The translations under genes were made by a program, and so were the position numbers. A stretch of 64,000 nucleotides of DNA, from assembly GCA_000996245.1 (NCBI GenBank), contig LBYP01000001.1:17197-81196 (forward strand). Direction: 5' to 3'. Source of the DNA: Parcubacteria group bacterium GW2011_GWA2_40_23 (GTDB lineage: Bacteria > Patescibacteriota > Patescibacteriia > UBA11705 > JABHMO01). This document shows positions 868 through 40,693 of this stretch, one piece after another (position 1 is the first letter of the stretch; each line of letters begins with the position of its first letter). Below the pieces are notes generated by a model. It searched no databases, was not told where the DNA came from, and saw nothing but the letters and a program-made list of their open reading frames with translations.

Positions 868-921
868 ATAGTGTAGCATGTTTAAAAGTATTGTCAAACC
901 AATAGTATTTTGTTCCTCGGC

Positions 922-1002
922 TAATCATGTTAATTATAGTAATAGCGTTTTGTTTCTAAAATAATCATGGTAATCATACAAATCATAGTTAATCATAGTA
1001 AG
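922..1002. repeat. AATCAT-rich degenerate tandem repeat (family member 1)
   Basis: ctaatcatgttaattatagtaat ... ataatcatggtaatcatacaaatcatagttaatcatagtaag. It shares the AATCATAGTAA(G/T) core with the repeats at 6056-6262 and 16716-16890. Confidence 0.6.
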
Positions 1003-6031: not shown

Positions 6032-6055
6032 ATAGTTTATTATTTTTGGTAAATG

Positions 6056-6262
6056 TTAGTTGCCATTAATCATATTAATCATGATAATCATTGTAATCAT
6101 AGTAATGTTCGTTGCCACTAATCATATTAATCATAAGAATCAGGGTAATCATAGTAATGTTTGTTGCCGCTGCTAATCATATTAATCATGATAATCATTG
6201 TAATCATAGTAATGTTTGTTGCCACTAATCATATTAATCATGATAATCATTGTAATCATAGT
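6056..6262. repeat. Tandem repeat, about 52-55 bp unit x 4 (GTTGCCACTAATCATATTAATCATGATAATCATTGTAATCATAGTAATGTTT)
   Basis: Seen directly: four consecutive near-identical copies between marR (upstream) and the adaptor gene. Contains the palindromic ATCATGAT core. The last copy overlaps the marR stop. Confidence 0.75.
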
Positions 6263-6687
6263 CTTTCGTAATGCTTAAAAAGTTTTTGATATATATTAAT
6301 TAAATCTTTTTTGTCTTTTTCGTTTAGAGGAGAGAGAAAGTTAATCATTTTACTTTTTATGTTTTTCTGTGTTGTTTCCAGGAATTTTTTGCCCGTTTTT
6401 GTTAATTCTAGATAAACGTTACGACGATCTTGTTTCTCGTGCTTACGGGACAGTAGCTTTTTGTCTTCGAGTTTATTAATGAAACAGGTAATAGAGGGTG
6501 GCGTGATACCAAAAAGACGAGCCAGGTCTTTCATGCGGGTCTTTTCTTGACTGTTGATGAAGGAGAGGGCTTCAAATTGAATCATTTTTTCTGCTGAGAT
6601 TTGAGTGGTTTTTTGCAGTTGTGAGAAAATGAGGCGTTTTAGGTTAAAAATGGTTTCGATTAGTTGTTCTGTGTTTTGTGTAGACAT
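6256..6687 (-). CDS. MarR-family transcriptional regulator
   Basis: 143 aa with a winged-helix region (MKDLARLFGITPPSITCFINKLEDKKLLSRKHEKQDRRNVYLELTKTGKKF). First gene of the minus-strand efflux operon. Confidence 0.8.
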   Translation of the reverse strand: MSTQNTEQLIETIFNLKRLIFSQLQKTTQISAEKMIQFEALSFINSQEKTRMKDLARLFGITPPSITCFINKLEDKKLLSRKHEKQDRRNVYLELTKTGKKFLETTQKNIKSKMINFLSPLNEKDKKDLINIYQKLFKHYERL

Positions 6688-6889
6688 ATTTAGTTTATCT
6701 AACTATTATGTTTTCTAAGTATAACAGGGCGGATAAAAAAAACAATGTTTGGCGTTGCGTGAAGATGCTTGGGTTTGTTTTGAAGTGTTCAATTGAAAAA
6801 GACAATTTGGGTGGTTTTTTGATTGATTTTTTATCACAGATGATGTAAAATTGCATTAGTTTGTAAACAATTTAACTTTATTACTAAAT

Positions 6890-8341
6890 ATGTTCGAACA
6901 ATCCTTTAAAAACATTGATAATATTCTCCATACTGATTCTGGCTGTGGAACTGAGTTGGATTATGTTGAGCAAACGTCCTGGATTCTCTTTTTGAAGTAT
7001 CTTGATGACTTAGAAGAGACCAAGAAAACTGAAGCCGCACTTGCCGGTAAAAAGTATGAGTATATTTTGTCCTCTGAGTATCGTTGGAACTCTTGGGCTT
7101 GCCCGAAAAACGGAGGTGGCAAATTGGATCATAATAAATCATTAGACGGTGACGATTTGAAGGATTTTGTGAATAATAAACTTTTCCCATATTTGAAACG
7201 ATTCAAAGCTGAAGAACCAAATACCATCGAATATAAAATTGGAGAAATTTTTTCTGAATTAAAAAATAAAATCTCTAGCGGCTATAAGTTGCGAGAGATT
7301 TTAAATATTGTTGATGACATGCATTTTCGACTTTACGAAGAAAAACATGAGCTGTCGCATCTTTATGAAGCTAAGATCAAGAACATGGGTAACGCGGGTC
7401 GGAATGGTGGTGAATACTATACGCCCCGCCCTTTAATTAAAACAATTGTAAAAGTTGTTGCACCAAAAATTGGTGACACTATTTATGACGGTGCTTGTGG
7501 GAGTGCAGGGTTTTTGGTGGAAGCATATAAATATTTAACAGAAAATCAGGCCAAGCTTTCTTCTAAACAAATGGAAATATTACAGACAAAAACTTTTTAT
7601 GGAAAAGAAATAAAATCCCTCGCTTACATCATTGGCATTATGAATATGATTTTGCACGGCATTGAAGCGCCGAATATCCGCCACATGAACACATTGGCAG
7701 AAAACATTAATGATATTCAAGAAAAAGATCGGTTTGATATTATTTTGGCCAATCCGCCTTTTGGTGCTGGTATTGGACGAGAGATTCAACAGAACTTTCC
7801 AATTAAGACAGGTGAAACTGCTTTTCTTTTCTTGCAACATTTTATAAAAATTTTGAAAGCTGGTGGGCGAGCCGGTATTGTTATCAAAAATACTTTTCTT
7901 TCTAATACAGATAATGCGAGCGTTTCCCTAAGAAAATTACTTTTGGAAAACTGCAATCTGCACACGGTTTTGGATTTGCCTGGCGGTGCTTTTCAAGGTG
8001 CTGGGGTGAAAACTGTAGTTTTATTCTTTGAAAAGGGCGCGCCAACGAAAAAGGTTTGGTTTTATCAGCTTAATCTTGCTCGCAATCTTGGCAAAGGGAA
8101 TCCTTTGAATGAAAATGATTTGGTGGAATTTGTGGAACTGCAAAAAACTAAAGCAGATAGTGAAAATTCGTGGTCGATTGATGTGACAAAAGTTGATCAA
8201 AATACTTTTGATTTGTCGGTGAAGAATCCAACCAAAAGCAATGAGGTGGCTTTGAGAGAGCCGAAGGAGATTTTGGAGGATATGAAAAGTATTGATGATA
8301 ATGTAAAAAATATTTTGGAACAAATTGGGGAAATAATATAA
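6890..8341 (+). CDS. hsdM: Type I restriction-modification N6-adenine DNA methyltransferase subunit M
   Basis: 483 aa. HsdM N-domain, AdoMet motif DGACGSAGFL, catalytic NPPFG (ILANPPFGAG). Confidence 0.85.
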   Translation: MFEQSFKNIDNILHTDSGCGTELDYVEQTSWILFLKYLDDLEETKKTEAALAGKKYEYILSSEYRWNSWACPKNGGGKLDHNKSLDGDDLKDFVNNKLFPYLKRFKAEEPNTIEYKIGEIFSELKNKISSGYKLREILNIVDDMHFRLYEEKHELSHLYEAKIKNMGNAGRNGGEYYTPRPLIKTIVKVVAPKIGDTIYDGACGSAGFLVEAYKYLTENQAKLSSKQMEILQTKTFYGKEIKSLAYIIGIMNMILHGIEAPNIRHMNTLAENINDIQEKDRFDIILANPPFGAGIGREIQQNFPIKTGETAFLFLQHFIKILKAGGRAGIVIKNTFLSNTDNASVSLRKLLLENCNLHTVLDLPGGAFQGAGVKTVVLFFEKGAPTKKVWFYQLNLARNLGKGNPLNENDLVEFVELQKTKADSENSWSIDVTKVDQNTFDLSVKNPTKSNEVALREPKEILEDMKSIDDNVKNILEQIGEII

Positions 8342-8359
8342 TAAATAATTTTATAAGGT

Positions 8360-9184
8360 ATGATAGATGAAACTATAAAGATTTCTCTTAATAAGGGTTA
8401 TGAAAATATAAAAAAAGTTGACGAAAATGGTGTTGAATATTGGCAGGCGAGGGAGCTGATGCCATTGTTGGGTTATGAGGTATGGCAAAAGGCCGAAGAT
8501 GTGATTGGTAGGGCTGCAAGGGCCTGTGTTAATAGCGGTCAGGCTGTGGATAACCATTTTAACCTTTCCAGTAAAATGGTTGAGATAGGCTCAAATACAG
8601 TCCGCGAAGTGCGTGACTGGAAATTGGATCGTTTTGCATGTTATTTAGTTGCACAAAATGGCGACTCGAATAAGCAGGAGATTGCTTTGGCACAGACCTA
8701 CTTTGCCATTCAAACCAGAAGACAAGAGATGTTCGAGCAGCTTACAGAAGATGATAAACGTTTATTTATAAGGGGTGAAGTATCAGATGAGAATAAGAAA
8801 CTGTTTAGCACAGCAAAAAGTGCGGGTGTTACTAAGTTTGGTTCTTTTAATGATGCTGGTTATAGAGGGCTTTATGGAATGTCACTCGTCGAAGTAGAAG
8901 AAAGAAAGAATGTCAGAAAGGGTGAACTGCTTGATAGAGCAGGAACGACGGAGTTGGCGGCTAATTTGTTTCGGATTACTCAAACAAAAGAAAAGATAAA
9001 AAAGGATAATATCCGTGGTGATTATGATGCGTCGCAGACTCATTTTATGGTCGGTGGCAAAGTTAGGCAAACCATAAAAGATATTGGAGGGACTACGCCA
9101 GAAAATTTGCCAGCGGAAAGACATATCAAAGAATTGAAGAGCAGAAAGAAGAAACTCTTAAAAAGGAATAACAGTGAGAATTAA
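8360..9184 (+). CDS. dinD: DinD-like protein (DNA-damage-inducible protein D family)
   Basis: 274 aa. Colinear with E. coli DinD as recalled from memory: YWQARELMPLLGY, DRFACYLVAQNGD, QTYFAIQTRRQE, GTTELAANLF, HFMVGGKVRQTIKDIGGT. Same length class. Confidence 0.75.
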   Translation: MIDETIKISLNKGYENIKKVDENGVEYWQARELMPLLGYEVWQKAEDVIGRAARACVNSGQAVDNHFNLSSKMVEIGSNTVREVRDWKLDRFACYLVAQNGDSNKQEIALAQTYFAIQTRRQEMFEQLTEDDKRLFIRGEVSDENKKLFSTAKSAGVTKFGSFNDAGYRGLYGMSLVEVEERKNVRKGELLDRAGTTELAANLFRITQTKEKIKKDNIRGDYDASQTHFMVGGKVRQTIKDIGGTTPENLPAERHIKELKSRKKKLLKRNNSEN

Positions 9185-9190
9185 TTTTAT

Positions 9191-9823
9191 ATGAATGAAA
9201 AAATTTTACAAAAATATATTCAACTAATTAACGATGTCGATTCTTCTATCCGAGTCGCGTGCGATGGTTGGCCTGATACAACAGTTGTAAGTAGAGTTGT
9301 AACGGAGGCGATGAATTTAATAAAAAAAACCTGTGGCGAAGCGAGCGATCATTATATCCGTCTAAAAGAAATTACAAAAGGGGATAATTATCACCCCGAT
9401 AATGCAACTCAGTATAAAGGTGTCATAGAAGCTGCCTATAATGATTATAGGGATGGTTTCGCTAATCTTGATTTTTTTGTAAGAGCAGAAATTTTTGAGG
9501 ATTTTTTATCTATGGCTGAATATCTTCTTTCAGAAGGATATTATGTCCCAGCCGCATCTTTGGTTGGTGGTGTACTTGAAGATTTTTTGAGAAAATTGTG
9601 TGATAAAAACGTTGTTTCTTATCAGACGAAAACAAAGATTAATTCTCTGAATGTTGATTTGGCAAAAGCTGGTGTTTATACTGCTTTGGTCTCAAAAGAG
9701 ATTATTGCAAAGGCTGATATTAGGAATAATGCTGATCATGGTAAACCAAATGCATTTAACAAACAGGATGTTGAAGATATGGTAAAATGGGTTCGTAGGT
9801 TTATTGTCGATTTCTCACAATAA
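9191..9823 (+). CDS. Hypothetical protein embedded in the hsd operon
   Basis: 210 aa, no family recognised by eye. Tightly packed between the dinD-like gene and hsdS (gaps of 6 and 12 nt). Confidence 0.5.
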   Translation: MNEKILQKYIQLINDVDSSIRVACDGWPDTTVVSRVVTEAMNLIKKTCGEASDHYIRLKEITKGDNYHPDNATQYKGVIEAAYNDYRDGFANLDFFVRAEIFEDFLSMAEYLLSEGYYVPAASLVGGVLEDFLRKLCDKNVVSYQTKTKINSLNVDLAKAGVYTALVSKEIIAKADIRNNADHGKPNAFNKQDVEDMVKWVRRFIVDFSQ

Positions 9824-9835
9824 AATTTAAAAGAT

Positions 9836-10399
9836 ATGGACTGGCAAACAAAAAAACTTCGTGATGTTTGTGATGTAATTGCTGGCCAATCGCCAGAAGG
9901 TAAATTTTATAATAAGTCTGGAAATGGTGTACCCTTTTATCAGGGCAAAAAAGAATTTGGCGAAAAAATAGTTGGAAAACCAACAACTTGGACAACTAAA
10001 GTTACAAAGGAAGCATTGAGTGGCGATATTCTAATGTCGGTGAGAGCACCGGTTGGACCAACTAATTTTGCTACAGAAAAAATCTGTATCGGTCGTGGTC
10101 TTGCCGCAATTAGGGTTGGTAAAGATATCGATAAGTTTTTTCTATTTAATTTTTTGCAGTTATATGAAAGTAAAATAGTTGGTAATAAAGGTGCTGTGTT
10201 TGATTCAATTAGCAAAACACAGATAGAAAATATTGAGATATTATTGCCACCTCTACCCGAACAGAAATCCATCGTCGCCAAACTCGACGCTCTTTCCACT
10301 GAAACTAAAAAACTGGAAGCAATTTATAAACAAAAACTGGCGGATTTGGAAGAATTGAAAAAGTCAGTGTTGAAGAAGGCGTTTAGTGGGGTGTTATAA
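9836..10399 (+). CDS. hsdS: Type I R-M specificity subunit S, half-size (single target-recognition domain)
   Basis: 187 aa. TRD followed by the conserved C-terminal coiled-coil repeat (LPPLPEQKSIVAKLDALSTETKKLEAIYKQKLADLEELKKSVLKKAF). Confidence 0.7.
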   Translation: MDWQTKKLRDVCDVIAGQSPEGKFYNKSGNGVPFYQGKKEFGEKIVGKPTTWTTKVTKEALSGDILMSVRAPVGPTNFATEKICIGRGLAAIRVGKDIDKFFLFNFLQLYESKIVGNKGAVFDSISKTQIENIEILLPPLPEQKSIVAKLDALSTETKKLEAIYKQKLADLEELKKSVLKKAFSGVL

Positions 10400-10533
10400 T
10401 GCTGGTTCTTGATTTTCGAAAGAATGCTTTAAAGTTATAATTGTAAATCAGATCTTGTAGTTTACTGTTAATTATGTTAAAATTAGCAGTAAGTTAACAG
10501 AAGGGATAAAAATAATAAATTTAGCCAAATAAT

Positions 10534-11856
10534 ATGATTGAAAAACCTCCCAAATGGGAAGAACTATTATCAGGGGAGCTTATTAGGAAAGTTCATGATT
10601 CTAAGGAAACTCAAGAAATTTTGAGTAAGGCACAAAAGGAATATGTTTATTGGGATAAATTTAAGTATTATTTATTTCCTAAAAATGTAACACCCAAAGA
10701 GGCCTGGGCATTCTTAAAAATTTCAAGATCCTCAAATGAAAAAACTCCCATTAAGTCTATTACAGGGAGCACTTTTACTTATAATCTTCCAAAAAGTTTA
10801 TATCAAAAATTAAATTTTATTGACACTCACGGAGCGGGTTTGCTTAAGAGTTTTAAAGACAGACCTTCAAGTACACAGACAGTAAAATATATAATTAGCA
10901 GTTTGGCTGAAGAAGCTATCGCTTCTAGTCAAATTGAGGGCGCTAATACTACACATAAGGTGGCGAAAGAAATGATTTTATCTCAAAGAAAACCACGTAA
11001 CAGAAGTGAACAAATGATCGTAAATAACTATTTGGCTATGCAAAGGGTCTCCGAATGGAAAGACATGGATTTAACAGAACAAATGTTGCTTGATCTGCAA
11101 AAGACCATCACAGACCAAACAATTGATGAGCCTACTAGTGTTGGTAGGTTTAGGAATGATGAGGATCAAATAGTTGTAAGCGATCCAATAACAGGCGAGA
11201 TAGCGCATATTCCGTTTAAACGAGAAAAGATGTTGTCTGAATTAAAGAGGTTGATTGATTATGCTAATAAGCCGGAGGACGATGATGACTTTACTCATCC
11301 TGTTGTAAAAGCGACTATTTTGCATTTTTGGTTTGCCTATTTACACCCTTTTGTAGACGGTAACGGGAGATCCTCAAGAGCTCTTTTTTATTGGTATTTA
11401 TTAAAAAATAATTATTGGCTTATAGAGTATATTTCTGTTTCTAGAACAATTAAACAAAGTAGAAAAGCATATGACAATGCGTTCTTGTATAGCGAAAATG
11501 ATGATAATGACTTGACCTATTTTTTGCTTTATAATGCCGAGATATTCAAAAAATCAATTCTTCAATTTTTGGAATATTTTGCGGAAAAAATGAAAGAGGT
11601 TGATGAATCGAAGAAGACCACTTCGTTGTTGGGTATATTTAATTCCAGACAAGTTATGTTGCTTAAATATTTTCTTTCTCATATTGATGAATACACTGAC
11701 GTTATAACACATCAAAATAAGCACGGAATATCACGTCCTTCCGCTTATAATGATCTTAGCTTTTTGGTGGGAAAAGGATATCTTGCGAAGACAAGAAAAG
11801 GAAAGAGGTTAGTGTATATGCCAAATGCAACAAAAATTAAAGAAATATTTAATTAG
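10534..11856 (+). CDS. fic: Fic/DOC-family protein (AMPylation/filamentation induced by cAMP)
   Basis: 440 aa. Canonical Fic motif HPFVDGNGRSSR (HxFx(D/E)GNGRxxR) and a C-terminal winged-helix-like region. Confidence 0.8.
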   Translation: MIEKPPKWEELLSGELIRKVHDSKETQEILSKAQKEYVYWDKFKYYLFPKNVTPKEAWAFLKISRSSNEKTPIKSITGSTFTYNLPKSLYQKLNFIDTHGAGLLKSFKDRPSSTQTVKYIISSLAEEAIASSQIEGANTTHKVAKEMILSQRKPRNRSEQMIVNNYLAMQRVSEWKDMDLTEQMLLDLQKTITDQTIDEPTSVGRFRNDEDQIVVSDPITGEIAHIPFKREKMLSELKRLIDYANKPEDDDDFTHPVVKATILHFWFAYLHPFVDGNGRSSRALFYWYLLKNNYWLIEYISVSRTIKQSRKAYDNAFLYSENDDNDLTYFLLYNAEIFKKSILQFLEYFAEKMKEVDESKKTTSLLGIFNSRQVMLLKYFLSHIDEYTDVITHQNKHGISRPSAYNDLSFLVGKGYLAKTRKGKRLVYMPNATKIKEIFN

Positions 11857-11858
11857 TT

Positions 11859-14162
11859 ATGAATGAATCAGAAACTAGAGCTGAATATATTGACCCCAAA
11901 CTCAAAGCAAGTGGTTGGGGTGAAGTCGAAGGGTCAAAAGTTCTAAGAGAATTTAGAATTACCGATGGTCGTATCCAAACGGGCGGACTTCGAGGTAAAC
12001 CTGAAATTGCTGATTACATTTTAGTTTATAAAAATTGTAAGATTGGTGTAATTGAAGCCAAGGCTGAAAATTTAGAAGCAACTGAAGGTGCAGCACAAGC
12101 AAAATCTTATGCGCAAAAACTGCAAATAGATTATACCTATGCCACAAATGGCAAAGAGATTTATGAAATATCGATGGGTACGGGTAAAGAAAAAAGTATT
12201 GCTGATTTCCCGACACCTGATGAATTGTGGAATAAAACTTTTTCAAATCAAAATGAATGGAAAGAAAAATTTGCTAATCAACCAAACGAAGGCGAATATG
12301 GGAAACGTTATTATCAAGAAATTGCAATTAATAATGTGTTAAATGCTGTTGCAGAAGACAAAACAAGAATTCTTTTGACCATGGCCACTGGAACTGGGAA
12401 AACAGCGGTGGCATTCCAAATCGCCTGGAAACTTTTTCAAACTCGTTGGAGTTTAAACCCAGACGGTGGTCGACGGCCAAGAATTTTATTTTTAGCAGAT
12501 CGAAATATTTTAGCTGATCAAGCTTTTAATTCATTCTCAGCTTTCGATAAAGACGCACTTGTTCGCATAAATCCGTTAGATATTCGTAAAAAAGGCGCAG
12601 TTCCAAAAAGTGGAAGCGTCTTTTTCACTATTTTTCAAACTTTTATGAGTGGCCCTGATGGGACGCCTTATTTTGGGGATTACCCAGCAGATTTTTTTGA
12701 TTTTATAGTTATTGATGAGTGCCATAGAGGTGGAGCTAACGACGAAAGTAATTGGCGCGGAATATTAGAATATTTCTTTCCAGCCGTACAACTTGGTTTA
12801 ACAGCTACGCCAAAGCGCAAAGATAACGTCGATACATATAAATATTTTGGCGAACCTGTATATACATATTCGCTTAAGGAAGGTGTTAATGATGGTTTTT
12901 TGACTCCATTTAAGGTTAAAAGAATTCAAACTACCTTAGATGATTATGTTTATACTTCGGATGATCAAATAATTGAAGGAGAAGTTGAGGTTGGTAAAGT
13001 TTATACGGAACCAGAGTTCAATAGAACTATTGTAATTGAACAACGAGAAGCAAAACGTGTAAAAGTATTTCTTGATGACATTAATCAAAACGAGAAGTCA
13101 ATCATTTTCTGTGCAACTCAGGGACACGCTCTTTTGATTCGTGATTTAATAAATCAAATGAAAAACAGTAAAGATCCTAATTACTGTGTACGAGTAACAG
13201 CAAATGACGGCGCACGAGGAGATCAATTTTTGAGAGAATTCCAAGATAATGAAAAGACCATCCCAACGATTTTAACTACATCACAAAAACTTTCAACAGG
13301 TGTTGATGCACGCAACATTCGTAATATAGTATTAATGCGTCCAGTAAACTCGATGATTGAATTCAAACAAATTATTGGGCGAGGGACTAGACTTTTTGAT
13401 GGGAAAGAATATTTTACCATCTATGATTTCGTTGATGCATATAAGCATTTTTCTGATCCAGAATGGGATGGTGAACCTGTAGATGAGTCTACCGAGAGAG
13501 AACCGAAGATCAAAAAATTGAAAGCTGTAGTGGAAACATTACCACAGCCTGAACCAATATATGAACCAATGGAAAAGTTGAAAATAAAGTTGCGTGATGG
13601 TAAGGAGCGAGAAATTAAACATATGATTTCTACTTCATTTTGGAGTGCCGACGGGAAACCAATATCCATCCAGGAATTTATGGATAACATGTTTGGTGCT
13701 ATGCCTGAGTTCTTTAAGAGTGAAGAAGAATTACGGAAAATTTGGTCGAATCCAACTACACGTAAAGTGTTTTTAGATAAAATTGCTGAAAAAGGCTATG
13801 GCAAGGATGAATTAGAGACTTTGCAAAAAATGGTTGATGCTGAACAAAGCGATTTATTTGACGTTCTAACTTATATTTCATTTTTAACACAACCTATTTC
13901 AAGAGTGGAAAGAGTTGAACAAACAAAAGATAAAATTTTCAAAGGACTTGATGCAAAACAAAAGGAATTTTTAGATTTCGTTTTGACAAAATATGAAGAG
14001 AAAGGTGTTGAAGAATTAGATGAGGACAAGTTGCCCATACTGTTAAATTTAAAATATCATGCCATAGCTGATGCTGAACAATTGCTCGGAAGCGTCGATG
14101 ACATCCGATCAATTTTCTTCAATTTTCAGAAGAATTTATATGCTAAACTAAGTAATAAATAA
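11859..14162 (+). CDS. hsdR: Type I restriction enzyme R subunit (helicase/endonuclease)
   Basis: 767 aa. N-terminal nuclease region, Walker A TMATGTGKT, DEAD-like VIDECHRG, helicase C motifs (QIIGRGTR). Confidence 0.85.
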   Translation: MNESETRAEYIDPKLKASGWGEVEGSKVLREFRITDGRIQTGGLRGKPEIADYILVYKNCKIGVIEAKAENLEATEGAAQAKSYAQKLQIDYTYATNGKEIYEISMGTGKEKSIADFPTPDELWNKTFSNQNEWKEKFANQPNEGEYGKRYYQEIAINNVLNAVAEDKTRILLTMATGTGKTAVAFQIAWKLFQTRWSLNPDGGRRPRILFLADRNILADQAFNSFSAFDKDALVRINPLDIRKKGAVPKSGSVFFTIFQTFMSGPDGTPYFGDYPADFFDFIVIDECHRGGANDESNWRGILEYFFPAVQLGLTATPKRKDNVDTYKYFGEPVYTYSLKEGVNDGFLTPFKVKRIQTTLDDYVYTSDDQIIEGEVEVGKVYTEPEFNRTIVIEQREAKRVKVFLDDINQNEKSIIFCATQGHALLIRDLINQMKNSKDPNYCVRVTANDGARGDQFLREFQDNEKTIPTILTTSQKLSTGVDARNIRNIVLMRPVNSMIEFKQIIGRGTRLFDGKEYFTIYDFVDAYKHFSDPEWDGEPVDESTEREPKIKKLKAVVETLPQPEPIYEPMEKLKIKLRDGKEREIKHMISTSFWSADGKPISIQEFMDNMFGAMPEFFKSEEELRKIWSNPTTRKVFLDKIAEKGYGKDELETLQKMVDAEQSDLFDVLTYISFLTQPISRVERVEQTKDKIFKGLDAKQKEFLDFVLTKYEEKGVEELDEDKLPILLNLKYHAIADAEQLLGSVDDIRSIFFNFQKNLYAKLSNK

Positions 14163-14202
14163 TGTCTGATTAAATTGGTTCACTTAAAAGGAGTAAATTT
14201 TT

Positions 14203-14931
14203 ATGTCGCCTAAATACAACTTAGACAAAATTAAACATGCCACTGATGCACCTACCTTCCAAAAGGCGATTGGTTTGTATGAGGGTGGCAAAGTCATAAA
14301 CTTTCATGAGGATTTTGGTCGTTTTAGTGCGACAGTTTTAGGCACAGAACCGTATATGGTTTATGTTGATGGCAATCATTATGGTCAAGGTGCTTGTGAT
14401 TGTTATCTGGGGCAAAACGATACTCTTTGTAAACACATGGTGGCAGTAGCAATTTACGCTGTTTTGAATGGTCAGGAGTTGAGTTCTACGGATAAAAATA
14501 TAATTACAGAACTTGTTTGTAGTGCTAAGTCGGGAGCATTAAACAAAGAAGATTTAGCGGTGGTTAAAAAAAATATCACTTCTTCTATTAAGTATATTAA
14601 AGCTTATGTCGGTCCGTCGAGGACTTGGTTTGCCTATCAAAACTCCTTGGATGAGGGGTGCTCCCGTTTGTCAGAGATTGTGTGCAGTCTGCCCATTAGT
14701 CTGCAAACTGCAAAATTAATTGTTAATTTGCTTTTACGTCTTGATAAGAAGTTATGCCAGGGTGGAGTTGATGATTCCAACGGTACCGTTGGTGGATTTA
14801 TAGAAGAACTTGTTAAAGTCCTGGAAGACTTTGTAAAAGCTGATGCTTCTTGTTTAGCATCTTTTAATGAATTAAAAAACAGGGAAACATGTTTTGGCTG
14901 GGAAGAGCCTCTTCTTAAATTACTTATCTAG
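14203..14931 (+). CDS. SWIM zinc-finger domain protein
   Basis: 242 aa. CDCYLGQNDTLCKHMVAV has the CxC-x(n)-CxH SWIM pattern. SD AAAGGAG lies upstream. Confidence 0.6.
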   Translation: MSPKYNLDKIKHATDAPTFQKAIGLYEGGKVINFHEDFGRFSATVLGTEPYMVYVDGNHYGQGACDCYLGQNDTLCKHMVAVAIYAVLNGQELSSTDKNIITELVCSAKSGALNKEDLAVVKKNITSSIKYIKAYVGPSRTWFAYQNSLDEGCSRLSEIVCSLPISLQTAKLIVNLLLRLDKKLCQGGVDDSNGTVGGFIEELVKVLEDFVKADASCLASFNELKNRETCFGWEEPLLKLLI

Positions 14932-15028
14932 TTTTTGTGTTTTATGCTCCCTGTTCTATCACGAATCAGGAATTTTGTTTTCTTGTTCTCGAATGCTACG
15001 ATATCATTATAAAACCTAAAAATAAATT

Positions 15029-16675
15029 ATGTTAAAACGTTTTGCGTTCGTGATGATTTTGGCTTTCCTTTTATTACCGCAAATTACTTTGGCCGATGGT
15101 GCTGCTTTTATTCCTGGCCCATACGATGATCGTTGGGATTATAATCAGGAATCCACTCAGTCGGCCATCATTGATTTTAAAAATGGCACGCAAAAAATGC
15201 TTTTGAATGTAGGTTTTGAATCTGCTGAAGTCGACACAGTTTGGCTTTTCCCGGTGCCAGCTCAACCAGAAAAAATAATTATTGATGTAGTCGAAGATGT
15301 TCCAAATCTTCGTGGAGAAGAACTAGGTGATAGTGCCAAATCACAGCTGGATATTTCTAGACGTGGTTTGTTGGCCTTACAAGTGTATGCTATTCCTTTT
15401 GCGTTAAGTCATAGATATTCTGGTTCTGGTGGAACAGGCGTGTCTTTGGGTGGTGCTGGTTTTGGTGCGTCAGATGGCAAGTCCGCAGATGTTCTTGTCT
15501 ATGAAACCATTGAAAAAGAGGGCATTACGTCACAAATAATTACCGCCAAGACTTCTGTTGGACTTTTTAAATATTTAAGAGAAAAGAATCTGAATATTAA
15601 GGGTGGCAGTATTCCTGCACTGGACGAATATGTTGGTAAAGATTTTTCTTTTGTGGTTTCTTGGATTTCAACACAAAATAAGCCGGATAAGAGTCGCCAA
15701 GAGGTAGAAGATAAACTTTTACGCTTTTCTAATAATTATTTTCAAGAGTCTAATGGTATTAAAAAAGATTTTTTGAAAGGAATTCAAACGCAATTTCCTG
15801 ATAATTATCTTGCTTATACGTCAGCCGTTTATCAGGGATCGCATGTCGGAGGTGATTATCTAATTATAAATACTGAGTTTAAGAACAAGTTGGTGGATTT
15901 GTTACTGCAATCGCCAGAATTACTAATAGAAGATACGTATTATGATTATAGGGGGGCTGAGAGTAAGGTCCGTGGCGTTTTCGTTAGTTTCCCTACGGAA
16001 AAAGCTTTTTATCCATTAAAGTTGACGAGTGTCTATGGCAGTGAAATTATTCCTACTGATATTCGTCTTGTTGGGTATGTGGAACCGCAAACTTATAAGG
16101 ATATTGCCCCGTATGTTGAGACAAGTTATTATTTTGAGTCTGATTATTATGATACTTATGGTACTCCTAAGAATTTGTTTGGGTGGGAAAATAATCAGTC
16201 GATACGTTATACAAAAGTTACTTTGAAGGCACCATCTAAATTATTTACACAAGATCTTTGGTTTACCCCGAATAATAGTATCAAGTTGTCTGTTCTTGAA
16301 TTGCTTGGTCGATCTTTCTTTTTCACTTTTATACCGTTATTTCTGATTTGTTCATTTTTAGCTGGTATCTTTGCTGCTTGGATTGCGTTTTGGGGAAGAT
16401 TGGAATCTCGTCGTAAACTATGGAGGTATGGTTTATTAAGTTGGTTTAATTTTTTTAGTATATTTGCAGTCATGTTAGTTGTTTTCTTCTCGAGAACAAG
16501 AAGTTTAGACGAAGCACATAAGGCAACTCTAGTTGGATTAAAGTCCCAGGGTTTATCAACCTGGGCTATTCATTCAAAGGACTATGGTCGAAAATTGTTG
16601 TTCGTGATATTGTTCTCTTTGACTTATGTCGCCCTGGTTTTATTCTTTTGCTGGATTTTGCGTGTAATTCTGTAA
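15029..16675 (+). CDS. Secreted/membrane-anchored hypothetical protein
   Basis: 548 aa. N-terminal signal peptide (MLKRFAFVMILAFLLLPQITLA), a large extracytoplasmic domain with a Gly-rich loop, and three C-terminal TM helices. Confidence 0.55.
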   Translation: MLKRFAFVMILAFLLLPQITLADGAAFIPGPYDDRWDYNQESTQSAIIDFKNGTQKMLLNVGFESAEVDTVWLFPVPAQPEKIIIDVVEDVPNLRGEELGDSAKSQLDISRRGLLALQVYAIPFALSHRYSGSGGTGVSLGGAGFGASDGKSADVLVYETIEKEGITSQIITAKTSVGLFKYLREKNLNIKGGSIPALDEYVGKDFSFVVSWISTQNKPDKSRQEVEDKLLRFSNNYFQESNGIKKDFLKGIQTQFPDNYLAYTSAVYQGSHVGGDYLIINTEFKNKLVDLLLQSPELLIEDTYYDYRGAESKVRGVFVSFPTEKAFYPLKLTSVYGSEIIPTDIRLVGYVEPQTYKDIAPYVETSYYFESDYYDTYGTPKNLFGWENNQSIRYTKVTLKAPSKLFTQDLWFTPNNSIKLSVLELLGRSFFFTFIPLFLICSFLAGIFAAWIAFWGRLESRRKLWRYGLLSWFNFFSIFAVMLVVFFSRTRSLDEAHKATLVGLKSQGLSTWAIHSKDYGRKLLFVILFSLTYVALVLFFCWILRVIL

Positions 16676-16715
16676 TCATTTAATCATGGTAATCATTTAA
16701 TCATAGAAATCATAG

Positions 16716-16890
16716 TAATGGTGCTGTGTCTGAGCTAAATCACAGTCATCATAAAAATCATAGTTAATCATAGTAATGGTGCTGTGTCGAGCTAAATCAC
16801 AGTCATCATAAAAATCATAGTTAATCATAGTAATGGTGCTGTGTCTGAGCTAAATCACAGTCATCACAAAAATCATAGTTAATCATAGTA
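16716..16890. repeat. Tandem repeat, about 58 bp unit x 3 (GTAATGGTGCTGTGTCTGAGCTAAATCACAGTCATCATAAAAATCATAGTTAATCATA)
   Basis: Seen directly: three near-identical copies, preceded by degenerate AATCAT repeats from 16672. It abuts the start of the phosphoesterase gene at 16894. Confidence 0.75.
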
Positions 16891-16893
16891 AGT

Positions 16894-17595
16894 ATGGTCA
16901 GAAAGTATAACAATGTCTTTGTAACTGGCGACACGCATTTGGGCGATGTTGTTTTTAATTATGAGGACAAGCTTGTTGATGCCATAAAACAAGATAATTT
17001 TGATGCCATTATCTTCGGCGGAGATACTTTTGATTCTTGGCGTGGAGGCTCTATTAAAGATATTCTTGCTAAGTACGATCAGTTGTTTAAGTTTTTACAA
17101 AAATTGAAAAGTAAGGTCGTATTTATCAGAGGGAACCATGATCCGCATATCGATGTGTTGAAAAGATTGGGGTTCTCAGTACGTAAACGATTTAAATATA
17201 TTGGATCATTAGGTGAGCGTGTTAAGGTTGTTCATGGGCATGAGTTTGATGATACTTGTAAGCGTTGGGAGTTTTTTATCAAGAGAATTGCTTATATTGA
17301 GAATAAAATTAATCAATGTCTCACAAAAGTAGACAATGAAACTTTTATTCGTTTTATGAATTTGATTAAACTTAACAAAATTGATTTACAAAGAGTTTTG
17401 AGTAGTTTCCGCGAGCGAGTTAATAATTATCGTAATACCGACGCCTTCCTCTTTGGACACACTCATTTGCCTATGACAGAGGAGCTGGGGAAGGTGAAGT
17501 TTTACAATTGGGGTGGCTGGCAAAAGGATTTTGGATCAAACCCACATTTCATTATCCACAAAGACGGTAAGTTTAGTAATATTGATATAAAATAA
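16894..17595 (+). CDS. Calcineurin-like metallophosphoesterase
   Basis: 233 aa with motifs GDTHLG, GGDTFD, GNHD, HGH, GHTH. Confidence 0.75.
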   Translation: MVRKYNNVFVTGDTHLGDVVFNYEDKLVDAIKQDNFDAIIFGGDTFDSWRGGSIKDILAKYDQLFKFLQKLKSKVVFIRGNHDPHIDVLKRLGFSVRKRFKYIGSLGERVKVVHGHEFDDTCKRWEFFIKRIAYIENKINQCLTKVDNETFIRFMNLIKLNKIDLQRVLSSFRERVNNYRNTDAFLFGHTHLPMTEELGKVKFYNWGGWQKDFGSNPHFIIHKDGKFSNIDIK

Positions 17596-40294: not shown

Positions 40295-40373
40295 TGGTGG
40301 ACGCTAGTGGGGTCGAACCACTGACCTCCTCGACGTCAACGAGGCGCTCTAGCCAACTGAGCTAAGCGTCCAC
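40295..40373 (-). tRNA. tRNA-Val (anticodon GAC)
   Basis: GTGGACGCTTAGCTCAGTTGGCTAGAGCGCCTCGTTGACGTCGAGGAGGTCAGTGGTTCGACCCCACTAGCGTCCACCA. 7-bp acceptor stem, anticodon loop TTGACGT, encoded CCA. Confidence 0.85.
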
Positions 40374-40616: not shown

Positions 40617-40693
40617 TGGTGGGCCTGATGGGACTCGGACCCATGACCCCCACTTTATAAGAGTGGTGCTCTAACCAGCTGAGCTACAGGCCC
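40617..40693 (-). tRNA. tRNA-Ile (anticodon UAU)
   Basis: GGGCCTGTAGCTCAGCTGGTTAGAGCACCACTCTTATAAAGTGGGGGTCATGGGTCCGAGTCCCATCAGGCCCACCA. Ile-type body (resembles tRNA-Ile GAU) but the anticodon loop is CTTATAA. The T-loop is TCCGAGT (C at position 55). Confidence 0.7.

Follow-up and report, generated by a model that had tools for sequence, protein, structure and literature searches.

Seven open reading frames lie on the plus strand between positions 6890 and 14931 of the window, the 64-kb stretch of DNA analysed here, in the order hsdM, dinD, hepn, hsdS, fic, hsdR, and a SWIM zinc-finger gene, with gaps of 18, 6, 12, 134, 2, and 40 nt between consecutive frames (Table 1). These coordinates and gaps bear out the gene order, single strand, and tight spacing described in a sequence-only reading of the same DNA. 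Domain and profile matches of the frames are far above chance level, catalytic motifs are intact in all proteins of the cluster, and the same seven-gene arrangement recurs, identical, on independently assembled contigs from several samples.

Table 1 Coordinates of the genes and the main spacer, numbered from the first letter of the window.
Feature	Description	Position	Strand	Basis or hallmark
hsdM	Type I N6-adenine DNA methyltransferase subunit, 483 aa	6890..8341	+	PADLOC MTase_I, Pfam N6_Mtase and HsdM_N
dinD	DinD-family protein, 274 aa, N-terminal Bro-N	8360..9184	+	NCBIfam PRK11525, PADLOC PDC-S13, Pfam Bro-N
hepn	Solitary two-domain HEPN protein, 210 aa, predicted RNase	9191..9823	+	Rx4H motif
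hsdS	Half-size specificity subunit, 187 aa	9836..10399	+	One TRD and one conserved coiled-coil helix
Spacer hsdS/fic	134 nt	10400..10533	+	Sole sizeable gap in the cluster
fic	Fic-family AMP-transferase, 440 aa	10534..11856	+	N-terminal inhibitory motif; C-terminal domain aligning with that of a solved Fic protein
hsdR	Type IB restriction/translocase subunit, 767 aa	11859..14162	+	NCBIfam EcoAI/FtnUII R subunit, Pfam
SWIM gene	SWIM zinc-finger protein, 242 aa	14203..14931	+	SWIM motif, PADLOC PDC-S62

HsdM matches the PADLOC model MTase_I across its full length (1.7e-160) together with Pfam N6_Mtase (6.2e-65) and HsdM_N, and scores 88 bits with the TIGR00497 hsdM model, below the 243-bit cutoff of that model. 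It contains the SAM-binding and NPPF motifs of gamma-class N6-adenine methyltransferases (DGACGSAGF at residue 200 and NPPF at residue 288). HsdR aligns with positions 1–768 of the NCBIfam model for R subunits of the EcoAI/FtnUII family (NF046051; 1.2e-246, 821 bits against a cutoff of 550) and contains the Pfam domains ResIII, Helicase_C, and EcoEI_R_C. Its motifs (nuclease D52...E66-x-K68, Walker A ATGTGKT, DECH, and QIIGRGTR) accompany the PD-(D/E)xK nuclease, SF2 motor, and EcoEI_R_C tail that define type IB subunits. These matches identify the backbone as an intact R-M system of type IB (the EcoAI/EcoEI family), located in the chromosome of a tiny groundwater bacterium of the Parcubacteria (CPR). 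Classically, this family was delimited by subunit complementation, antibody cross-reaction, and DNA hybridisation. The cluster shares with EcoAI/EcoEI systems the HsdR family, the matching HsdM and HsdS types, and the placement of hsdM-hsdS upstream of hsdR on one strand, but differs from them in its half-size S subunit, in the three foreign genes interrupting the operon, and in its CPR host.

The S subunit contains a single Methylase_S domain (residues 2–162, 1.3e-21), and its residues 3–186 align with residues 214–397 of the T. tengcongensis S subunit 5ybb_D (398 aa; 5.7e-50), a region encompassing TRD2 and the C-terminal conserved region. Both results agree with the earlier description of a half-size protein with one TRD. 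Where the family is defined by two TRDs and two conserved regions that read an asymmetric bipartite site, this protein has one TRD and one conserved helix; it is a half-size variant, which does not count against the family membership of M and R. Other half-HsdS variants include truncated EcoDXXI and EcoR124I S subunits. The half-S engineered from CC398, which likewise consists of one TRD and one conserved helix, dimerises and methylates the palindromic bipartite site ACCN5GGT (Bower et al. 2018, PMC6158711); unlike that engineered protein, the subunit described here is a natural form, widely conserved in a type IB lineage. By analogy, it should pair as a dimer on a symmetric, palindromic bipartite site.

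The first of the three embedded genes encodes a member of the DinD family with ~50% identity to E. coli DinD. The protein matches the NCBIfam model PRK11525/NF008573 (“DNA damage-inducible protein D”; residues 6–271 on model positions 5–281 of 288, 7e-97, 324 bits against a cutoff of 242), PADLOC PDC-S13 (PDLC04919; residues 8–270 on model positions 7–273 of 281, 6.3e-103), and Pfam Bro-N (3.8e-8). PDC-S13 is defined by an HMM match along with embedding in a defence system, and dinD combines such a match with a position between hsdM and hsdS. DinD is characterised by an SOS (LexA)-controlled promoter of its own and by inhibition of RecA filaments; the gene in this cluster starts 18 nt past the hsdM stop, and the spacer ATAAATAATTTTATAAGGT is too short to hold a separate operator and promoter. 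Homologues occur on plasmids, in phage satellites, and on the E. coli chromosome. In addition, the N-terminal 270 of the 717 positions of the PADLOC “Specificity_I” model PDLC03083 are DinD-like; DinD-HsdS fusion proteins therefore exist, which, at the level of sequence, hints at a physical link between DinD and the S subunit. To our knowledge, E. coli DinD is not known as a toxin or defence protein, and PDC-S13 is only a candidate family.

The second embedded gene had been labelled a 210-aa unknown, a label that gives way to identification as a HEPN-domain protein. Its RNNADH motif (Rx4H), invariant in the family, opens the last core helix of a four-helix up-down fold, as is characteristic of the HEPN superfamily (Rx4-6H). 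The N-terminal ~90 residues form a helical bundle for which no match was identified, and a profile of the family retrieved no solved relative by sequence at E<0.5. The family is large (~1100 clusters at E<=1e-30 and ~3600 at E<=1e-10), and Pfam, NCBIfam, and PADLOC contain no model specific to it. Homologues lie outside hsd operons in 27 of 29 genome loci; their contexts are unrelated and often mobile, such as small plasmids or the vicinity of a serine recombinase accompanied by type III R-M and OLD genes.

Identity with PrrC or RloC was rejected, as the protein contains no P-loop domain and has no Pfam, NCBIfam, or PADLOC match to either; in contrast with those effectors it has no ABC-ATPase domain, and it shows no sequence similarity to them. 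A HEPN-MNT (HepT/MntA) toxin-antitoxin system was also rejected because no minimal nucleotidyltransferase gene is adjacent, and no NTP_transf_2 gene was found in the cluster. The neighbours of the gene are dinD and hsdS, with no antitoxin, MNT partner, or ATPase sensor adjoining it. The protein differs from HepT/MNT toxins (5yep, 7ae8), AbiV, and HepS of the Gifsy-1 prophage in having no MNT partner, no solved relative by sequence at the threshold given above, and an N-terminal helical domain for which no counterpart was found. A true HepT/MNT pair occupies the equivalent slot in one related locus (L132).

The third embedded gene encodes a Fic protein (Pfam Fic, 4.4e-17, 63 bits against a cutoff of 24) with its core at residues 180–289. 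The active-site motif HPFVDGNGRSSR at residue 271 is intact and conforms to HxFx(D/E)GNGRxxR, and an inhibitory (S/T)xxxE(G/N) motif, SSQIEG, is found at residue 131 of the same polypeptide, N-terminal to the core; we take this layout to place the protein in class II. It matches PADLOC SoFic (2.6e-42) as well as PDC-S04/S23/S24, and among solved chains 8cil_A is the closest, with an alignment spanning residues 203–428. Assignment as a SoFic equivalog was rejected (NCBIfam NF046030, 45 bits against a cutoff of 550), and by these scores the protein is a relative of SoFic rather than an equivalog. The two have in common the canonical Fic motif, the N-terminal inhibitory motif, and the C-terminal domain, whereas the protein described here has ~118 extra N-terminal residues and no AS1-type downstream gene. 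In E. coli Sofic, a small antitoxin gene (AS1) lies downstream; no such gene follows fic here, because hsdR comes immediately after it, 2 nt past the fic stop. Sofic, a single-gene anti-phage system, acts by abortive infection through AMPylation (PMC12249575).

The sole sizeable gap in the cluster, between hsdS and fic, contains a promoter-like sequence, TTAACA-16-TAAATT, at positions 10494–10521, which is a consensus match only (9 of 12 positions). Type I operons have a two-promoter layout, and the spacer may therefore hold a putative internal promoter for fic-hsdR. The cluster is laid out in two units, hsdM-dinD-hepn-hsdS with gaps of 6–18 nt, and, past the spacer, fic-hsdR with a gap of 2 nt. 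Of the earlier designation as an R-M island, the intact R-M operon with cargo stands. Recent acquisition is not demonstrated, because the cluster matches the host in GC and GC3, and neither an integrase nor a tRNA nor att-like repeats were detected at its flanks.

Related loci were surveyed in metagenomes, using a simple ORF heuristic, over 80 loci encoding hsdM relatives with 71–90% identity; slot counts refer to the 49 loci, not de-replicated, having both hsdM and hsdR. Compact M-S-R operons account for 19 of the 49, while 30 contain extra same-strand ORFs, located in the hsdM-to-hsdS interval in 18 loci, in the hsdS-to-hsdR interval in 24, and in both in 12. The encoded proteins fall into ~50 unrelated sequence clusters, including the Pfam families Fic (five proteins), DUF3800 (four), RhuM (three), AAA_21/AAA_15, Schlafen-AlbA_2, YhcG, KAP NTPase, RelA_SpoT, PIN_12, and RES, and their PADLOC matches include SoFic and PDC-S04/S05/S23/S24. 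Examples are hsdM-HEPN-253 aa-half S-DUF3800-hsdR (L039) and hsdM-AAA_15/21-HEPN-195 aa-full S-Fic-hsdR (L003), and between close relatives the cargo is swapped while the hsd backbone is kept. The two intervals hold nothing in 19 loci and highly diverse same-strand toxin- or defence-type genes in the other 30, a pattern that marks them as cargo slots, in line with the earlier proposal that such genes hitchhike between hsd genes. That proposal would have fallen had the cargo consisted of conserved housekeeping genes in relatives lacking hsd, which is not what the homologues show: those of HEPN are not in conserved housekeeping synteny. The DinD, HEPN, and Fic families occur mostly outside hsd loci, and their unrelated mobile contexts mark HEPN and DinD as accessory rather than housekeeping.

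We know of no demonstration of phage protection for any of the PDC families matched here (PDC-S13, S04/S23/S24, and S62). The PDC models were built from genes nested within type I R-M, BREX, and DISARM systems; these are mostly defence genes, and 96.7% of them are co-oriented (Payne et al. 2024, bioRxiv 10.1101/2024.01.29.577857). [quoted passage not shown] In V. cholerae, TgvAB works as an active defence system from within a type I R-M system. Links to R-M exist for at least 16 HEPN clades, and a “three-level defence” of R-M, HEPN, and DOC has been proposed explicitly (Anantharaman et al. 2013, PMC3710099). Like PrrC-EcoprrI and the R-M/HEPN/DOC neighbourhoods of that study, the cluster places a HEPN Rx4H gene in an hsd operon with a gene of the Fic/Doc superfamily; its R-M host is type IB, whereas PrrC is an anticodon nuclease kept latent by a type IC system (EcoprrI), and RhuM fills an equivalent slot in relatives of the cluster.

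In this type IB operon, two slots have probably been taken over by three accessory genes that are independently mobile and that most likely serve as extra defence layers of the abortive-infection type. Homology in sequence and structure shows that M and S form the methyltransferase. Each S has a single TRD and a single coiled-coil helix, so two copies would have to pair; the core would then be M2S2 and the restriction complex R2M2S2, which, by precedent, would recognise a palindromic bipartite site. Co-expression of the cargo with the hsd genes is expected, since the genes are co-oriented and tightly spaced. Each embedded gene has its effector hallmarks intact: DinD belongs to a DNA-binding, RecA-modulating family, HEPN is a solitary protein of the Rx4H RNase type that begins with a helical domain, and Fic is an AMP-transferase that contains an inhibitory helix motif. 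The R-M enzyme would target incoming DNA first, and if it failed or was inhibited, HEPN could cut RNA and Fic could AMPylate a protein of the host or of the phage (for instance, a translation factor), so that the infected cell would come to a halt. Because the cargo turns over rapidly on a conserved hsd backbone, we favour autonomous modules sharing regulation and mobility over coupling of the PrrC/EcoprrI type.

It is unlikely that the embedded genes instead regulate the R-M enzyme or contain the damage it does, with DinD limiting self-restriction or acting in restriction alleviation, and Fic serving as a transcriptional regulator via its C-terminal domain or AMPylating HsdR or HsdM. In E. 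coli, DinD is an inhibitor of RecA filaments (Uranga 2011, cited by PMC10602874), and the first SoFic entry in the PDB, 3eqx, bears the name “FIC domain containing transcriptional regulator”; the DinD-like N-terminus of PDLC03083 and the tight hsdM-dinD and fic-hsdR spacing also fit such a role. However, none of the genes is needed for type IB function, as 19 of 49 systems contain no embedded genes and others contain unrelated ones. DinD is found in only 1 of the 80 related loci (L045), and all three families occur mostly elsewhere. We likewise give little credence to cargo made up of selfish addiction modules or passengers, sheltered from loss in a selected operon with no benefit in phage defence. 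Cargo of the relatives does include RES, PIN, RelA_SpoT, the HepT/MNT pair, and an IS200 transposase, HEPN relatives adjoin RelE/HTH pairs on small plasmids, and a Zymomonas plasmid has DinD relatives beside YafQ/DinJ and RelE pairs. Yet a classical addiction module needs an antitoxin, and no recognisable antitoxin partner was found for any of the three genes; their ORFs and catalytic motifs are intact in an arrangement identical across samples, and experiments have often shown phage defence by genes nested within type I R-M, Hma, and BREX systems.

The half-size S subunit raises a further alternative, in which hsdS is a truncated remnant, produced for example by insertion of fic, in a decaying or methylase-only locus, or in which it combines with a different half-S encoded elsewhere to recognise an asymmetric site. 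Most characterised S subunits have two TRDs, S genes of most surveyed relatives encode 370–420 aa, and the short hsdS is followed directly by fic; no second hsdS-like sequence was found in the search, which covered the 64-kb window. Against truncation, the conserved helix at the end of the ORF is complete and, in the alignment, reaches the extreme C-terminus of a solved full-length S subunit, and all motifs of hsdM and hsdR are intact. Of the 120 closest HsdS homologue clusters, 64 are half-size (170–215 aa; 55–78% identity), and natural half-S genes are found in intact operons (L131, L132, L039, L079/L080, and L110), several of them compact, overlapping, and cargo-free (L131, which reads hsdM-S197-hsdR, along with L079/L080 and L110). 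We therefore consider a remnant or heterodimeric S highly improbable. Conservation of length across divergence argues for selection on the half-size form, which, judging from these homologues, is a widespread natural class and a stable form.

Embedded genes and half-size S subunits are both already documented, and the locus is a clear but ordinary example of them. One 8-kb operon exemplifies three published ideas, namely nested defence genes, layered R-M/HEPN/Fic-Doc systems, and half-length S, and extends them to Patescibacteria (CPR), whose tiny genomes still give space to stacked defences. Its practical value lies in candidates, that is, the DinD family (PDC-S13) and the solitary HEPN family, which is large and missing from current defence-finder models. 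More tentatively, this uncharacterised HEPN family, which combines an N-terminal helical sensor-like domain with a C-terminal Rx4H HEPN domain, might represent a new single-gene abortive-infection RNase. In this CPR lineage it would perhaps be wired to type IB R-M as a PrrC-like second line, with DinD and Fic adding DNA-repair- and protein-directed layers in a four-layer operon.

The gene downstream of hsdR encodes a protein with the SWIM motif CDCYLGQNDTLCKH, C65-x-C67-x8-C76-x-H78 (CxCxnCxH), whose cysteines and histidine are invariant in 29 homologues. The protein scores 19.2 bits with Pfam SWIM, just under the cutoff of 19.6, and its match to PADLOC PDC-S62 (2e-15) spans the N-terminal 96 positions only. 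The sequence-only reading had listed this gene last in the gene order of the cluster; membership of the hsd operon finds no parallel in the related loci, where a SWIM gene lies next to hsdR in none of the 80. Homologues with 62–68% identity are located among other defence genes in three unrelated contexts, and the gene is probably an independent gene of defence neighbourhoods rather than an hsd component. The cluster directly adjoins the ribosomal-protein superoperon.

[quoted passage not shown] Because HsdR passes the EcoAI/FtnUII equivalog model and carries an EcoEI_R_C tail, the system is type IB. By homology, M and S form the methyltransferase, to which R adds an ATP-driven translocase and a nuclease. 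Separate assemblies of several samples contain contigs with the identical seven-gene order. A divergent MarR/MacB-type efflux unit flanks the cluster on one side and the S12-S7-EF-G ribosomal superoperon lies ~3.7 kb downstream; Rfam searches found no RNA element within the cluster.

Positions and assignments of the genes, repeats and comparison loci discussed in the text
Feature	Sequence	Positions	Assignment or content
hsdM	window	6890-8341 (+)	PADLOC MTase_I, 1.7e-160; Pfam N6_Mtase and HsdM_N; motifs DGACGSAGF and NPPF intact
dinD	window	8360-9184 (+)	DinD equivalog NCBIfam PRK11525, 324 bits vs cutoff 242; Pfam Bro-N
hepn	window	9191-9823 (+)	210 aa; Pfam HEPN match, sub-threshold only; RNNADH motif intact
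hsdS	window	9836-10399 (+)	187 aa; one Methylase_S domain
fic	window	10534-11856 (+)	Fic profile match; active-site motif HPFVDGNGRSSR intact, plus inhibitory SSQIEG
hsdR	window	11859-14162 (+)	EcoAI/FtnUII equivalog model over full length, 821 bits vs cutoff 550; EcoEI_R_C tail; motifs D..ExK, ATGTGKT, DECH and QxxGRxxR intact
SWIM gene	window	14203-14931 (+)	signature CxCx8CxH intact
AATCATNNN tandem arrays	window	920-990; 6040-6262; 16680-16900	intergenic, 9-nt unit
tRNA-Val(GAC)	window	40295-40371	absent from the Rfam results at gathering threshold
tRNA-Ile(UAU)	window	40617-40693	ARAGORN; Rfam confirms tRNA
HepT-MNT pair	L132	7244-8001	half-S type IB operon, hsdM-hsdS slot; NTase_sub_bind and NTP_transf_2
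small ORF and HEPN-family gene	L133, Acinetobacter baumannii plasmid NZ_CP133710.1	3548-4675	ORF of 133 aa
small ORF and HEPN-family gene	L001	9693-10633	ORF of 100 aa
dinD plasmid region	L126, Thiothrix subterranea plasmid NZ_CP133216.1	7001-14653	dinD, 1057-aa DEAD/DEAH helicase, SWIM, radC, Fic; adjoins parAB
SWIM context 1			type I R-M; cargo NYN, PemK and Bro-N
SWIM context 2			AAA_21 and RloB, type III R-M
SWIM context 3			type ISP enzyme and AbiEii

The S subunit is half-size with a single TRD, as had been proposed. HsdS residues 3-186 align end to end with TRD2 and the C-terminal conserved helix of the 398-aa Thermoanaerobacter tengcongensis S subunit (5ybb_D and 3okg_A, E ~6e-50) and, judged from this alignment, the protein is a complete TRD-plus-helix module rather than a fragment. 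Lengths of 170-215 aa are found in 64 of the 120 closest HsdS homologue clusters (55-78% identity). Comparable half-size subunits are found in intact operons both with cargo, that is, genes embedded between the hsd genes (loci L039 and L132), and without it (L079/L080, L110, and L131, where hsdM, a 197-aa S gene and hsdR overlap), and other loci have full-length S genes in which the same TRD type serves as TRD1. No second hsdS-like sequence was detected within the 64-kb window. Experiments have established that an engineered half-HsdS forms a dimer and methylates the palindrome ACCN5GGT (PMC6158711). A homodimeric S is the best-supported reading; it implies a predicted (S)2 core, and the target would therefore be symmetric and bipartite.

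The 210-aa protein, previously listed as unknown, could be assigned by domain search to HEPN: its own Pfam match is sub-threshold, and among 29 family members 25 match HEPN, 5 DUF4145 and 2 RiboL-PSP-HEPN. The N-terminal ~90 residues form a helical domain for which a match was not identified. A family profile search across 1.84 billion representatives recovered 5195, 3571 and 1144 proteins at E<=1e-3, 1e-10 and 1e-30, respectively, and nearly all of the best 150 matches are full-length (215-230 aa). Searches of the protein against PADLOC and NCBIfam matched no model, and a sequence search of solved structures returned none related to the family. This HEPN family is large, standalone and uncharacterised.

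Two readings of the embedded genes were weighed, as defence cargo or as conserved housekeeping genes. HEPN relatives lie inside an hsd locus in only one or two of 29 genome loci, and their contexts elsewhere are unrelated to one another: beside a serine recombinase, a type III-like R-M system and an OLD nuclease; after lepA; between ppx and a hydrolase gene in Permianibacter; and adjoining a RelE/HTH pair on small Acinetobacter plasmids. Even relatives sharing 73-80% identity with the window protein occur both inside hsd loci (L039, L003) and outside. DinD relatives (~50% identity) include the E. coli chromosomal dinD, genes adjoining toxin-antitoxin pairs on Zymomonas plasmids, genes beside integrases, and many in Streptococcus phage satellites. 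Since the HEPN and DinD contexts lack conserved housekeeping synteny, the cargo interpretation survives. Outside hsd, a small same-strand ORF often precedes the HEPN gene and could encode a partner or antitoxin; it is missing in the window, where dinD holds that position.

The backbone was surveyed through a metagenome scan with HsdM (80 loci, 71-90% identity), from which 46 loci with both hsdM and hsdR were retained, with three more added: L003, L039 and L034, the contig of the window itself. In this set of 49, which was not de-replicated and was annotated with a simple ORF heuristic, 19 loci have a compact hsdM-hsdS-hsdR arrangement and 30 carry extra same-strand ORFs (18 between hsdM and hsdS, 24 between hsdS and hsdR, 12 in both slots). 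The cargo proteins 100 aa or longer (n = 64), whose annotation was pooled across proteins, fall into ~50 unrelated clusters. Their Pfam matches comprise Fic (5), DUF3800 (4), RhuM (3), AAA_21/AAA_15, 23S_rRNA_IVP, Schlafen-AlbA_2, Bro-N, DUF2130, YhcG/DUF1016, KAP NTPase, ORF6N, AntA, UvrD, RelA_SpoT, PIN_12, RES and one IS200 transposase, while PADLOC identified SoFic and the defence candidates PDC-S04, S05, S23 and S24. Fic always occupies the hsdS-hsdR slot and HEPN the hsdM-hsdS slot in the surveyed loci, as in the window. The first slot is filled in all relatives whose HsdM is at least 78% identical, and a shared backbone can carry swapped genes: L039 retains HsdM (86% identity), HEPN (80%), half-S (73%) and HsdR (80%), but where the window has dinD and fic it carries an unknown of 253 aa and a gene of the DUF3800 family. 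Cargo turnover therefore greatly exceeds backbone divergence. In L132, a true HepT and MNT toxin-antitoxin pair sits in the first slot, and a TPR protein and a Schlafen/AlbA_2 ATPase precede hsdR.

DinD is the least clear of the three embedded proteins. It corresponds to full-length PDC-S13; the supplements of Payne et al. contain no text on PDC-S13 or PDC-S62. The first 270 of 717 positions of the PADLOC "Type I specificity subunit" model PDLC03083 match the window DinD (6e-66), so there must be DinD-HsdS fusion proteins, a hint that DinD-like domains and S subunits are functionally linked. E. coli DinD inhibits RecA filaments (Uranga 2011, as cited in PMC10602874); given this and the fusions, DinD may have a role connected with damage sensing or with the R-M complex. 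The dinD region of the Thiothrix plasmid was considered as a recurring gene set and dismissed as coincidence, its SWIM and Fic proteins having no specific kinship to those of the window.

Every element of the locus has clear precedent. Embedded co-oriented (96.7%) genes are frequent in type I R-M, BREX, DISARM and Hma systems; many are defence systems, and they are the source of the PADLOC PDC models (Payne et al., bioRxiv 10.1101/2024.01.29.577857). Ties to R-M operons have been reported for at least 16 HEPN clades, and a three-level strategy of R-M (DNA), HEPN (RNA) and DOC/Fic (protein) has been proposed, with RhuM in an equivalent slot (Anantharaman et al., PMC3710099). TgvAB, embedded in a Vibrio cholerae type I system, is active by experiment. 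Modestly new are the example from a CPR genome, the half-S as a conserved natural lineage within the type IB family, and a HEPN family missing from current defence catalogues.

The three embedded proteins would most plausibly add defence layers, with HEPN targeting RNA and Fic targeting proteins. Sofic acts by abortive infection via AMPylation (PMC12249575), and EF-Tu is a reported AMPylation target of SoFic (bioRxiv 10.64898/2026.07.09.737422). Coupling of cargo to the R-M complex in the manner of PrrC is speculative; the window HEPN has neither an ATPase domain nor an MNT partner. Because spacing is tight within each group, the genes likely form two units, hsdM-dinD-hepn-hsdS and fic-hsdR, the latter perhaps with the SWIM gene, separated by the 134-nt spacer, which contains a weak promoter-like match. 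The usual type I layout has two promoters, and the two-unit arrangement mirrors it.

The SWIM gene follows hsdR on the same strand and had been listed in the gene order of the cluster; across the 80 loci no relative of it adjoins hsdR, which argues against its being an hsd component. Its family is very large in Patescibacteria (>1500 matches), with 61-68% identity in each of the top 120 clusters. All three contexts examined are defence neighbourhoods, each of a different kind.

The term "island" holds in the sense of a defence gene cluster and was not borne out in that of a recently acquired mobile element. No tRNA gene was found near the cluster, no recombinase among the proteins scanned around it (6256-16675), and no break in GC or GC3 at it. 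Flanking direct repeats were not convincing, the AATCAT arrays on both sides occurring also elsewhere in the window. An empty-site relative was not found: each contig with an identical MarR or HsdS also holds the full cluster. With no empty site found, and with neither composition nor repeats pointing to recent acquisition, we regard the locus as a defence gene cluster rather than a demonstrated mobile element.

The AATCATNNN arrays (21 matches vs 1.3 expected by chance) form higher-order units of ~52-58 nt. A Met-Ile-X leader ORF was ruled out, as no frame is open. The array-bearing spacer between MarR and the efflux operon varies between samples: it is 66 nt in L127 and 225 nt in L128 and the window. 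MarR, the hsd cluster, the SWIM gene and a 548-aa membrane protein lie between two arrays; a third is located outside, so the array is probably a genome-wide intergenic repeat. Elsewhere in the window, a tRNA-Val(GAC) adjoins a tRNA-Ile with anticodon UAU, a minor oddity, since in most bacteria a lysidine-modified CAU tRNA reads AUA.
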